Assembly (NCBI RefSeq): GCF_003334405.1
Contig: NZ_QOWM01000017.1
DNA: 64,000 nucleotides
Direction: 5' to 3' (one strand)
Source of the DNA: Escherichia coli
GTDB lineage: Bacteria > Pseudomonadota > Gammaproteobacteria > Enterobacterales > Enterobacteriaceae
The translations under genes were made by a program, and so were the position numbers. The notes beneath the pieces are model-generated. The model saw only the letters and a list, made by a program, of their open reading frames with translations. It was not told where the DNA came from and did not search any database. Positions 36,392 through 57,991 of the stretch are shown here, in pieces. The number at the start of each line of letters is the position of its first letter. Within the stretch, counting starts at the first letter, position 1.

Positions 36392-36422
36392 ATCGCCTCC
36401 CATTAACTATTGCCAGCTACAA

Positions 36423-36438
36423 GCAATAATTGTGCCAG
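36423..36438 (-). promoter_or_regulatory. Sigma-54 promoter of the hyp operon (-24/-12)
   Basis: Minus-strand TGGCAC-aatta-TTGC (plus strand gcaataattgtgccag), upstream of hypA. Confidence 0.7.
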
Positions 36439-51992: not shown

Positions 51993-53126
51993 CTACATCG
52001 GCAATGTTTTCAACAATCCAAATGCCTCTTTCATCCGATCCTCACTGACCACAAAGGCGCGAAGCTGGTCAGCATCGTCAACGCCGCGCGCCACCATTCC
52101 CTGGCGTTCGGTATTAATTTGCCAGCGTAAATCCTGACGCTGGGTTTCGCCTGCCAGATGCAGCGGTAATTCCGGCGTTTTGATTTTCACCAGCATCGCC
52201 GGGAGTTTCAGCGGCGTGTTATTGCCGAGAAGATTTTTTGCCAGCACCATCGCGCTAAGTTGAATCGGCTGGAGGAACGGCAATACCTGACCGTTAATTT
52301 CCGCGCAATCGCCCAGCGCGTAAATATCGGTATTACTGGTTTGCAGATAACTATCGACGCAAACGCCGCGATTAATCGTCAGCCCGGCGCGTCGTGCCAG
52401 GGCGGTTTCCGGGCGCAGTCCGGTGGCGGCAATTACCGCATCCACTTCGATGCTACGCTGGCGGTCCAGCGTTGCCAGAATGCCAGAATCCGTTTTTTCC
52501 AGCCCCTGCAACTGAGATTTCAACAGCAGATGAACACCCATCTCCGTCAACCGATGCTGCAAGCGGCTGCTTACTTCCGGTGGCATTAACGACGCCAGAA
52601 TACTGGCAGCGTTGTCGATTAGCGTGACCGCTTTGCCTGCACGACAAAAATCCATCGCCAGTTCGCTACCAATCAAACCACCGCCAACAATCAACACGCG
52701 TCGGGCATCCCGCAGTTGCGTTTCACAGGCGCGATACTCTTGCTGACTATTTAACGTCAGCATTAACTCACGCCCAGGCACAGGCGGGACAAAGGCGCTG
52801 GCACCGGTTGCCAGCACTAACTTGTCGTATTGCCACTGATTATTCTGGCTTTTCACCACATGGGCTTCGGCATCGATATCCGTCACCCAGGTGTGCGGAA
52901 ACAGGCGCAGATTAAACTGCTCGGCAAATTCACCCGCCGTCTGGCGGGTAAGGTCGTCGGCACGTTGCCCCTGACTGATAACATGGCTGAGGTCAGGTTT
53001 GTTGTACTCATCTATGCTGTCGGCGGCAATCAAGGTTAATGGAATAGTGGCGTCCTGTTTGCGAATATTTTTCACCAGTTGTCGGGCGGCGAAGCCCGAA
53101 CCAATGATCACAATGCCGTTGCTCAT
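51993..53126 (-). CDS. norW: NADH:flavorubredoxin oxidoreductase
   Basis: 377 aa; FAD/NAD Rossmann motifs ([21 protein letters not shown]). Confidence 0.95.
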
Positions 53127-54562
53127 TTTGCCTCCGATGCCAGTTCGTCAAAGACGTCTTTGCCGAGGGAGCATTCCGGGCACAGGAAGTTATCCGGGAC
53201 TTCACTCCACGGCGTTCCTGGTGCAACGTCCTGCATTGGCTCGCCTTTTGCCGGATCGTAAATCCACCGGCAGACGCTGCACTGCATCCGTGGGCCGAGG
53301 TCAGCCGTCGTGGCGGCAGAGGTTTCTTCTTTAACTACCGTATTCACCGTGCTCTGCGGCAGCGGCGCGAGCGCCCACTGACGGGCGATTTCGCGACCGT
53401 GTTCACGGCATAACTCCAGAGCGTCCTGGTCTGGTCGCCATTTGGCTTTCAGGCTGAGCGACATTTCGAAACCCGCATCCTGCAGGCGCGTGGAAAGACG
53501 ATCCACCGCACCGCCGCTCCAGCCGTGAGAGCCGAAAGCACTGGCGCGTTTGTTACGGAAGCGTAAACCAGTCATCTCCTCCACCAGCCCGGCGATTTTC
53601 GGCATCATCACGTTATTCATCGTCGAAGTGCCGACCAGCACGCCTTTTGAGCGGAAGACATTGGTCAGGATTTCGTTTTTATCGCTTCGGGCGACGTTGA
53701 AAATTTTCACCGCCACGCGTGGGTCGGTTTCCGCAATCCCCTGGGCGATAGCGTCAGCCATCATGCGGGTGTTATTCGACATGGTGTCGTAGAAAATGGT
53801 GATTCTGTCTTCCTGATAATCAGCCGCCCATTTCAGGTACAGCTCGACAATTTGCGTCGGGTTATCGCGCCAGACCACGCCGTGGGAGGTCGCTATCATA
53901 TCGACTGGTAAGTTAAAGCCCAGGATCTCGGTAATTTTCGGCGTTACCAGGCGGCTGAACGGCGTCAGGATATTGGCGTAGTAACGCTGGCACTGCTCGA
54001 AAAGCTCCGTCTGATCCACTTCATCGTTGAACAGATGCTCGTCACAGTAGTGCTGACCGAAAGCATCGTTACTGAACAGCACCGCGTCGCCTGTCAGGTA
54101 AGTCATCATGCTGTCCGGCCAGTGCAGCATTGGTGTTTCGACAAAAATGAGCTGTTTGCCGTTGCCGATATCCAGCGTGTCGCCAGTTTTCACCACATTA
54201 AAATTCCACTCCGGATGATGGTGATGACCATTTATCGAGTCGATAGCGTTGGCAGTACAGTAGATCGGCGTATCGGGAATTTGTGCCATCAGTTCGGTCA
54301 GCGCCCCAGCGTGGTCCTCTTCTGCATGGTTAATCACGATGTAATCGATATCCGCCAGATCGATTTCATTACGCAGGTTCTGCACAAATTCGCGGCTGAA
54401 TTTATGGTCGACGGTGTCGATCAGCACGTTTTTTTCTTCGCGGATGAGGTAGCTATTGTAGCTGCTGCCGCGCAGCGTTTTATATTCCGTGCCGTGAAAA
54501 TCACGCACTTCCCAGTCACGTTGACCAACCCAATGAATGTTATTTTTCACCACAATAGACAT
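53123..54562 (-). CDS. norV: Anaerobic nitric oxide reductase flavorubredoxin
   Basis: 479 aa; metallo-beta-lactamase-like and flavodoxin domains; C-terminal rubredoxin CxxC...CPxC. Confidence 0.95.
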
Positions 54563-54609
54563 AGCAACCTCAATTTATTCAGCGTGTTCTAAAAAGATGT
54601 CTTGCTAAT

Positions 54610-54625
54610 TGCAGATTGCGTGCCA
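54610..54625 (-). promoter_or_regulatory. Sigma-54 promoter of norVW (-24/-12)
   Basis: Minus-strand TGGCACG-caat-CTGCA (plus strand tgcagattgcgtgcca), about 50 bp upstream of the norV start. Confidence 0.7.
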
Positions 54626-54680
54626 GTTTTTTATCTGATTGTTTTTACTCTATAAATAAAATTATGCCCATTAATGAGTA

Positions 54681-54736
54681 GTCAAAATGACTATCAATCA
54701 AATGGTCGATATGACAATATCTATAGTCAAATTGAC
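54681..54736. promoter_or_regulatory. Three NorR enhancer-binding sites (GT-N7-AC palindromes)
   Basis: GTCAaaaTGAC (54681-54691), GTCGataTGAC (54705-54715), GTCAaatTGAC (54726-54736) in the norR-norV intergenic region. Confidence 0.8.
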
Positions 54737-54748
54737 AGTGAGGCAAAG

Positions 54749-56263
54749 ATGAGTTTTTCCGTTGATGTGCTGGCGAATATCGCCATCGAATTGCAGCGTG
54801 GGATTGGTCACCAGGATCGTTTTCAGCGCCTGATCACCACGCTACGTCAGGTGCTGGAGTGCGATGCGTCTGCGTTGCTACGTTACGATTCGCGGCAGTT
54901 TATTCCGCTTGCCATCGACGGTCTGGCAAAGGATGTACTCGGTAGACGCTTTGCGCTGGAAGGGCATCCACGGCTGGAAGCGATTGCCCGCGCCGGGGAT
55001 GTGGTGCGCTTTCCCGCAGACAGCGAATTGCCCGATCCCTATGACGGTTTGATTCCTGGGCAGGAGAGTCTGAAGGTTCACGCCTGCGTTGGTCTGCCAT
55101 TGTTTGCCGGGCAAAACCTGATCGGCGCACTGACGCTCGACGGGATGCAGCCCGATCAGTTCGATGTTTTCAGCGACGAAGAGCTACGGCTGATTGCTGC
55201 GCTGGCGGCGGGAGCGTTAAGCAATGCGTTGCTGATTGAACAACTGGAAAGCCAGAATATGCTGCCAGGCGATGCCACGCCGTTTGAAGCGGTGAAACAG
55301 ACGCAGATGATTGGCTTGTCCCCTGGCATGACGCAACTGAAAAAAGAGATTGAGATTGTGGCGGCGTCCGATCTCAACGTCCTGATCAGCGGTGAGACTG
55401 GAACCGGTAAGGAGCTGGTGGCGAAAGCGATTCATGAAGCCTCGCCACGGGCGGTGAATCCGCTGGTCTATCTCAACTGTGCTGCACTGCCGGAAAGTGT
55501 GGCGGAAAGTGAGTTGTTCGGGCATGTGAAAGGAGCGTTTACTGGCGCTATCAGTAATCGCAGCGGGAAGTTTGAAATGGCGGATAACGGCACGCTGTTT
55601 CTGGATGAGATCGGCGAGTTGTCGTTGGCATTGCAGGCCAAGCTGCTGAGGGTGTTGCAGTATGGCGATATTCAGCGCGTTGGCGATGACCGTTGTTTGC
55701 GGGTCGATGTGCGCGTGCTGGCGGCGACTAACCGCGATTTACGCGAAGAGGTGCTGGCAGGGCGATTCCGCGCCGATTTGTTTCATCGCCTGAGCGTGTT
55801 TCCACTTTCGGTGCCGCCGCTGCGTGAGCGGGGCGATGATGTCATTCTGCTGGCGGGGTATTTCTGCGAGCAGTGTCGTTTGCGGCAGGGGCTCTCCCGC
55901 GTGGTATTAAGTGCCGGAGCGCGAAATTTACTGCAACACTACAGTTTTCCGGGAAACGTGCGCGAACTGGAACATGCTATTCATCGGGCGGTAGTTCTGG
56001 CGAGAGCCACCCGCAGCGGCGATGAAGTGATTCTTGAGGCGCAACATTTTGCTTTTCCTGAGGTGACGTTGCCGACGCCAGAAGTGGCGGCGGTGCCCGT
56101 TGTTAAGCAAAACCTGCGTGAAGCGACAGAAGCGTTCCAGCGTGAAACTATTCGTCAGGCACTGGCACAAAATCATCACAACTGGGCTGCCTGCGCGCGG
56201 ATGCTGGAAACCGACGTCGCCAACCTGCATCGGCTGGCGAAACGTCTGGGATTGAAGGATTAA
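54749..56263 (+). CDS. norR: NO-responsive sigma-54-dependent activator NorR
   Basis: 504 aa from [15 protein letters not shown] domain, AAA+ ([14 protein letters not shown]), C-terminal helix-turn-helix. The ORF-track start at 54674 would overlap the NorR sites. Confidence 0.95.
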
Positions 56264-57225
56264 ATAATCCCGGCCTGATAGAAATCCTGCAGGTTTATTG
56301 CGCCGGTGAGTTTGCCGTTTTCATCCACCACCGGTGCGGCAGTGATTTTGCGCTTCATCAGGATCTCTTTGGCGTCGATGGCGCGACTTTGCGATTGCAA
56401 CGTGGTGCCGCCGACCGTCATCGCTTCATTGACTGGCGTGGTGAGTGCGCCGCCGCCAACCAGCCAGCGACGTAAATCGCCGTCGGTAAAGACGCCTTGT
56501 ACCTGTTGTTGAGCGTCACATACCGCCACCAGCCCCAGACCGGTGCGGCTGAGTTCCAGCATCGCATCCATCACGCTGGCGGTTAACGCCACCTGTGGGA
56601 TGGCATCGTCACGGCGCATCAGATGATGCACTTTATTCAGCAAGCGAGCGCCCAGTGCCCCGGCTGGGTGGGAGCGGGCAAAATCTTCTTCATTAAATCC
56701 GCGCGCCTGCATGACCGCCATCGCCAGCGCGTCACCCATCATCAGGGTATTGACGGTGCTGGAGGTCGGCGCAAGGTGCATCGGGCAGGCTTCGCGTTCT
56801 ACGGAGATATCCAGCACCGCTTTTGCCGCCAGGCCCAGCGGTGACGTCGGTTTGCCGGTCATCGCCAGCAGCGCGATAGATTTATCTTCCAGACGCGGAA
56901 TAATCAGATCCAGTTCCTTCGCGCCACCGGAGTAAGAGATAAACAGCATCACATCGCGGCTTTCGATCATCCCCAGATCGCCGTGCAGCGCTTCTGCCGG
57001 ATGGACAAAAAAAGCCGGAGTGCCGGTACTGGCAAGCGTTGCGGCGATTTTCTTACCAATGTGGCCCGATTTGCCAATTCCCGAAACCACCACTTTGCCT
57101 TCACAGTGCAGGATGATATTGGCGGCGCGAACAAAATCATCGCCCAGACGTTCCGGTAAACGGCTTGCTTCCTGCAACTCCAGCATTAACGTCTGACGTC
57201 CCGCGTTCAGTAGTGCTTCACTCAT
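56260..57225 (-). CDS. gutQ: D-arabinose 5-phosphate isomerase (SIS plus CBS domains)
   Basis: 321-aa ORF; synteny. Confidence 0.9.
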
Positions 57226-57991
57226 TGCTCTCTCCGGTTATGATCACATCGATCCCTTTCTCTTCCAGCGCCTGACGAAACGCCGGATCGATACCTGCGT
57301 CGGTAATCAGCTTATCGACGCTTTCAAGACTGCAAACTACGTTGGGGCTTTTACGGCCAAACTTTGATGAGTCCGCCATCAAAATCACTTCGCGCGCGGC
57401 ATTGCACATTGCCTTACTGACGGTATAAACCTCGTTAAAGGTGGTTACGCCCGCATTGAGATCGATGCCGTCGGTGCCCATAAACAATTTATCGAAGGTG
57501 AAATGCTCGAAGGCATTCTCTGCCAGTTGCCCGTGAAATGAGGCCGATTTTTTGCGAAACGTTCCGCCTGGCATCAGGATAGTTTGTTCGTTATCCAGTT
57601 CGGATAGCGCATTGACGATATGCAGGCTGTTGGTCATCACCGTGATGTTATTAAAGCGCGAGAGCAGGGGAACCATCTGCAAAACGGTACTGCCAGCATC
57701 AAGAATGATCGAATCGCCATCATGGATAAAACTAACGGCAGCTTCTGCAATCAGCTCTTTCTTGTGGGTGTTGATGAGTGTTTTATGATCGATAGGCGGA
57801 TCGGATTCCTCTTTATTCAACACCACTCCGCCATAAGTACGAATGACGGTTCCGGCATGTTCCAGAATGACCAGATCTTTGCGAATGGTTGTGCCTGTGG
57901 TGTCAAAGTATTGCGCCAATTCTTCAACCGAGCATTTACCCTGCTTTTGCAGATACTCCAGAATGGCGGCCTGACGCTGACGAGGTTTCAT
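57218..57991 (-). CDS. srlR: DeoR-family glucitol operon repressor
   Basis: 257 aa; N-terminal helix-turn-helix. Confidence 0.95.

Follow-up and report, generated by a model that had tools for sequence, protein, structure and literature searches.

Positions 54563 to 54748 of the window (the whole 64-kb stretch of DNA that we analyzed) are almost certainly the divergent norR-norVW control region of Escherichia coli, with the NorR enhancer sites, the sigma-54 promoter and a norR start codon at 54749 (Table 1). The control region found here is already known, and nothing about it is new. Every defining norR-norVW feature testable in silico was found, the IHF site aside. norR is on the plus strand and norV-norW on the minus strand, which places norR divergently and directly beside the NO-detoxification operon, and RefSeq gives the gene names norV, norW, and norR at the homologous locus. 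The 186-bp norR-norVW intergenic region matches that of E. coli K-12 MG1655 base for base, and a 451-bp query from the locus had matches in all 5426 complete E. coli genomes searched (96.7 to 100% identity). We computed the motif positions, the identity to characterized DNA, the conservation and geometry across species, and the point where coding begins. The span proposed for the control region in the initial annotation (54610 to 54736) is exact. Calling the region complete was an overstatement, as the published IHF site (or sites) in the spacer and the norR promoter were missing from that description.

Table 1. Features of the norR-norVW locus (window coordinates)
Feature	Position	Strand	Basis
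norW CDS (NADH:flavorubredoxin reductase, 377 aa), second gene of the norVW operon	51993..53126	-	ORF list, RefSeq annotation
norV CDS (anaerobic NO reductase flavorubredoxin, 479 aa, intact)	53123..54562	-	ORF list, RefSeq annotation
norV Shine-Dalgarno motif (GAGG), 5 nt before ATG	54568..54571	-	read from sequence
Predicted norV transcription start (+1), 37-nt leader	54599	-	placed 12 nt downstream of the -12 C
Sigma-54 promoter of norVW, TGGCAC-G-CAAT-CTGCA (-24 GG, -12 GC), TGGCACGCAATCTGCA	54625-54610	-	consensus scan, ChIP-seq motif OS25
Candidate IHF-type element WATCAANNNNTTR (E. coli, 2 mismatches)	54632..54644	-	cross-species scan; conserved T-rich block; predicted placement
Noncoding in-frame extension, 25 codons, source of the spurious 529-aa ORF	54674..54748	+	no Shine-Dalgarno motif, no codon periodicity
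NorR enhancer site 1, GTCAAAATGAC, center about -87	54681..54691	palindrome	motif scan; published Site1 primer and 21-mer, exact mapping
NorR enhancer site 2, GTCGATATGAC, center about -111	54705..54715	palindrome	motif scan; published Site2 primer, exact mapping
NorR enhancer site 3, GTCAAATTGAC, center about -132, 18 nt before norR ATG	54726..54736	palindrome	motif scan; published Site3 primer, exact mapping
norR Shine-Dalgarno motif (GAGG), 5 nt before ATG	54740..54743	+	read from sequence
norR CDS (504 aa; GAF, AAA+ sigma-54 activator, and HTH domains)	54749..56263	+	RefSeq start, K-12 identity, NF003451, conserved ATG

The motif scan recovered all three of the GT-N7-AC palindromes that had been described upstream of norV, each at the coordinates originally given. 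The pattern GTCRNNNTGAC had 15 strand-matches in the 64-kb window, compared with 3.7 ± 2.2 expected (0 of 100 shuffles reached 15), and 3 of its 10 distinct sites fall inside 56 bp. Tucker et al. (2010) mutated each NorR site from GT-N7-AC to GG-N7-CC (PMC2831303). When reverted to the wild type, their primers map exactly to 54672-99 (site 1), 54697-722 (site 2), and 54719-48 (site 3), so site 1 is the NorR site nearest the promoter. The mutant versions do not map to the window; the site 1 21-mer and both external primers of the same study do. On identical DNA, experiments have demonstrated NorR binding, site mutagenesis effects, ATPase stimulation, and open-complex formation, and all three sites were required for activation (PMC2831303). 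The published footprint agrees with these positions: DMS methylation protection extends from -137 to -84, and the sites lie at -82 to -137 when the predicted +1 is 54599. In genomic SELEX, the norR-norVW spacer was the sole NorR-bound spot in the K-12 genome. Taken with the ChIP-seq motif described below, the primer mapping and the footprint identify the palindromes as the experimentally defined NorR enhancer sites 1 to 3, upstream of the sigma-54 norV promoter.

The sigma-54 element reported on the minus strand upstream of norV is also present and is oriented toward norV. Its -12 element has the canonical GC in E. coli. Sigma-54 ChIP-seq (Bonocora 2015) gave a peak (OS25) whose motif, CTGGCACGCAATCTGCA, is identical to the norV promoter and lies 37 nt from norV; this motif-to-gene distance equals the leader length that follows from the +1 that we infer at 54599. 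With one mismatch allowed, the sigma-54 consensus had 2 matches in the window (1.3 expected), which is not above chance. The second match, TGGCACAATTATTGCT, is at 36422-36437 on the minus strand and is the published ChIP-seq motif OS28, assigned to hypA (hyp/hyc region, FhlA dependent). It follows that the divergent hyc-hyp promoters fall within the window as well.

To study conservation, we scanned one genome per species with NorR residues 1 to 200. The scan returned 80 Enterobacteriaceae loci, and the alignment comprised 79 sequences (78 species plus the window). Among the 79, GTC and GAC were 90 to 100% conserved as half-sites in each of the three palindromes, TGGCA in the -24 element was invariant, and the spacer that contains the 54674 ATG was only about 50% conserved. 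The Shine-Dalgarno region of norV was 70 to 100% conserved across species. The geometry was similarly constant. Sites 1 and 2 are 24 bp apart and sites 2 and 3 are 21 bp apart in 78/78 species, and 73/78 have 18 nt between the center of site 3 and the norR ATG. In the 40 species matching a strict promoter pattern, the center of site 1 is 86 to 88 nt upstream of the predicted norV +1.

The strict -12 pattern failed in half of the species. We rejected promoter loss as the reason, as inspection showed a real variant: about half of the enterobacterial genera (Enterobacter, Klebsiella, Kosakonia, Leclercia, Lelliottia, Raoultella, and others) have TTGAT(A) in place of CTGCA at the equivalent of 54610-54614, which changes the canonical -12 C to A. 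Neither the -24 TGGCAC nor any of the three NorR sites is lost in these genera.

Could the palindromes have arisen by chance or belong to another regulator, with a fortuitous -24/-12 match? The lack of enrichment of the sigma-54 consensus in the window would fit such a reading, and we did find a fourth GTC-N5-GAC palindrome (GTCACGTTGAC) inside norV, at 54515-54525, about 40 nt past the start codon, evidence that chance can produce palindromes of this kind. We rejected this palindrome as a NorR site. It requires a particular base at the synonymous third position of a Gly codon, a position only 30% conserved, it is present in only about 25 of 79 species, and it is most likely a chance occurrence rather than a fourth site. 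For sites 1 to 3, a chance origin or a different regulator is vanishingly improbable: the sequence is identical to the DNA used in the binding, mutagenesis, ATPase, and open-complex experiments, sigma-54 ChIP-seq has a peak at norV, NorR has a single SELEX target, and the half-sites and their spacing are near invariant in 78 species.

Next, we focused on where norR begins. The mechanical ORF list contains a plus-strand ORF of 529 aa at 54674-56263 with an internal in-frame ATG at 54749. The initial annotation had preferred the internal start on the grounds that the longer ORF would overlap the NorR sites. The conclusion holds, but the overlap argument alone is weak because operators can overlap coding sequence, and independent evidence decides the matter. 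The start at 54749 is right because of in-frame stops in other genomes, the position of the Shine-Dalgarno motif, codon periodicity, the boundary of the family profile, and published residue numbering. Both the RefSeq PGAP annotation and the curated K-12 record use 54749. In the N-terminal comparison of NorR orthologs, the codon aligned to 54749 is ATG in 78/78 species, with a Shine-Dalgarno-like 4-mer ahead of it in 77/78 (GAGG is about 90% conserved). Over the first 50 codons after 54749, conservation averages 0.93/0.96/0.70 at codon positions 1/2/3; in the 25-codon extension the figures are 0.74/0.77/0.77, and the extension thus has no codon periodicity in the 78-species comparison. Amino acid identity to the window is 88% downstream of 54749 and 44% in the extension.

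The NorR encoded in the window is identical to that of K-12 MG1655 at 504/504 residues. It scored 822.5 bits against NF003451, the NCBIfam NorR equivalog (curated cutoff, 476), and profile positions 2 to 511 of 512 align to residues 26 to 528 of the long ORF. Pfam recovered GAF, Sigma54_activat, and AAA_lid_14 domains and, weakly, HTH_8 (E = 0.16). GAFTGA occupies residues 262 to 267 of the 504-aa form, and the published residue numbers (G266, the second Gly of GAFTGA; F264; R81; R75; D99; and C113) fit only that form.

Translation from the 54674 ATG would yield the 529-aa protein and put the NorR sites inside the norR coding sequence. The whole extension is indeed open in the window and in K-12, an ATG occurs at codon -25 in 12/78 species, and public databases list the 529-aa sequence under the name "ORF529 [Escherichia coli K-12]", which goes back to the original K-12 deposit, with a few GenBank records still carrying it. 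Still, this start is highly unlikely to be the one used. Reading the sequence upstream of the 54674 ATG revealed no Shine-Dalgarno motif, an in-frame stop falls within 24 codons upstream of the norR ATG in 34/78 species, and 14/78 lack any in-frame start codon upstream. Residues 1 to 25 of the long form lie outside the family model, and the published functional work is all in the 504-aa numbering. The frame is also interrupted within E. coli. In the GTDB representative of the species, a C-to-A change at 54699 creates an in-frame TAA (54698-700; codon -17, TCA to TAA), and GTG replaces the 54674 ATG. Of the 5426 complete E. coli genomes, at least 616, type strain ATCC 11775 among them, contain a 30-mer with the TAA allele; the allele without TAA shared by the window and K-12 occurs in 3759, and other variants account for about 1050. 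The 529-aa sequence is found on 48 contigs, compared with at least 1000 for the 504-aa form, which marks the long start as an artifact of history or of gene calling. We consider it very improbable that strains with an open frame make a minor, N-terminally extended 529-aa isoform from 54674 on a transcript starting upstream of the enhancer; if they did, translation through the NorR sites would be coupled to enhancer occupancy.

In most non-Escherichia species, the equivalent of 54719-54721, 10 codons ahead of the conserved norR start, holds another in-frame ATG. It sits between NorR sites 2 and 3, where E. coli has ATC, and is likely a trap for gene callers in non-Escherichia genomes.

The sequence around the control region was also close to that of K-12. 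An exact match of a 4-kb K-12 stretch to the window failed, and an anchored comparison of 4 kb with MG1655 revealed 8 single-nucleotide polymorphisms (SNPs), all in norV and all synonymous (0 amino acid changes over 341 codons). The SNPs are confined to a 600-bp stretch at 53663-54254, possibly the mark of a small recombination event, and the window does not differ from K-12 in norR, gutQ, or the intergenic region. norR (plus strand) and gutQ (minus strand) are convergent, and their 3' ends overlap by 4 bp at 56260-56263, as in K-12. The GutQ protein in the window is the same as K-12 GutQ. In strain 720632, gutQ is flagged as a pseudogene by RefSeq (missing C terminus); this strain has 100% identity to the 451-bp query, yet it is divergent elsewhere in the locus. 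An Rfam scan of 52000-57500 returned no RNA family.

The published IHF binding falls in the interval from the norV start to the NorR sites (PMC2831303), and a secondary source mentions a second IHF site. Scanning with the IHF consensus WATCARNNNNTTR (at most 1 mismatch) gave 117 matches window-wide and none in the E. coli promoter-enhancer spacer; this consensus is too degenerate to locate the E. coli IHF site. The T-rich block found in the cross-species scan is a candidate for the exact position. At the offset corresponding to 54632-54644, WATCAANNNNTTR with at most 1 mismatch was found in 53/78 species, and the best E. coli match has 2 mismatches. A perfect match to WATCAANNNNTTR occurs somewhere in the spacer in 26 species. 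The abstract of a study by Tucker from 2004 is said to report two IHF sites.

The region may also control norR itself. A sigma-70 consensus scan for a norR promoter found none on the plus strand. The lone minus-strand match, TTGTCA-16-GATAGT, was rejected: it is built from NorR half-sites, and such matches were no more frequent than expected from shuffling. Our literature search for a mapped norR transcription start or autoregulation data returned secondary statements only. Hutchings reportedly found, in 2002, roughly 3-fold negative autoregulation of norR. As a complement to their role at norVW, we think it somewhat probable that the three NorR sites also form the operator for negative autoregulation, with the norR promoter and ribosome-binding site in or beside the enhancer. 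Twelve nucleotides separate the end of site 3 from the norR ATG, and the fixed distance from the center of site 3 to the ATG in 73/78 species is consistent with this idea, although the needs of hexamer assembly could by themselves account for such a geometry and the plus-strand scan found no promoter. NorR is annotated as a "dual regulator" in K-12, secondary sources have it regulating both norVW and its own divergent gene, and autoregulation has been proposed for the paralogue NorR2 (Rodionov 2005).

A mechanism can be proposed by combining these positions with the literature on NorR binding, the need for all three sites, the hexamer, NO sensing, ATP hydrolysis, and IHF (including PMC2831303). 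Three dimers of the 504-aa NorR, translated from the 54749 ATG, would bind the GT-N7-AC inverted repeats at 54681-54736, and DNA binding would promote assembly of a hexameric AAA+ ring that resists heparin and stands ready at the promoter. Binding of NO to the non-heme iron of the GAF domain would then lift the repression of the AAA+ ATPase, with the involvement of R81 and the GAFTGA loop. IHF, presumed to bend the spacer of roughly 55 bp, would help the hexamer contact sigma-54 RNA polymerase at the -24/-12 element (54625-54610). ATP hydrolysis would remodel the sigma-54 closed complex into an open complex, and norVW would be transcribed leftward from about 54599. The 54674 ATG is almost certainly an accidental in-frame codon in noncoding DNA.

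The window and the E. coli K-12 norR-norVW system (Tucker et al. 2004, 2010) share the same 186 bp, the 504-aa NorR, the site sequences, the promoter motif, and the site order (site 1 nearest the promoter) and positions (-82 to -137). The control regions do not differ, and over the 4 kb compared, the 8 synonymous norV SNPs are what separates the window from MG1655. Other Enterobacteriaceae norV loci have three sites at the same 24/21-bp spacing, with TTGAT at -12 in about half of the genera. NorR promoters in other proteobacteria (Salmonella norV, Ralstonia eutropha norA/norB, and Pseudomonas and Vibrio hmp) also have tandem GT-N7-AC inverted repeats upstream of a sigma-54 promoter, usually with norR adjacent, but outside the enterics the target gene is different (hmp or norB). 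Other bacterial enhancer-binding protein (bEBP) enhancers, such as NtrC at glnAp2 and the TyrR boxes, share the upstream tethering of an AAA+ activator that loops to sigma-54 polymerase, often with IHF. Unlike NorR, NtrC needs two sites and is regulated through oligomerization.

The norR-norVW control region is a textbook sigma-54 enhancer that is widely reused as a nitric oxide biosensor part. The identification made here has no research significance, and its value is in annotation quality control only: the ORF track was shown to overextend norR by 25 codons, into norR's own enhancer. Correct boundaries are of practical value for cloning PnorV-norR.
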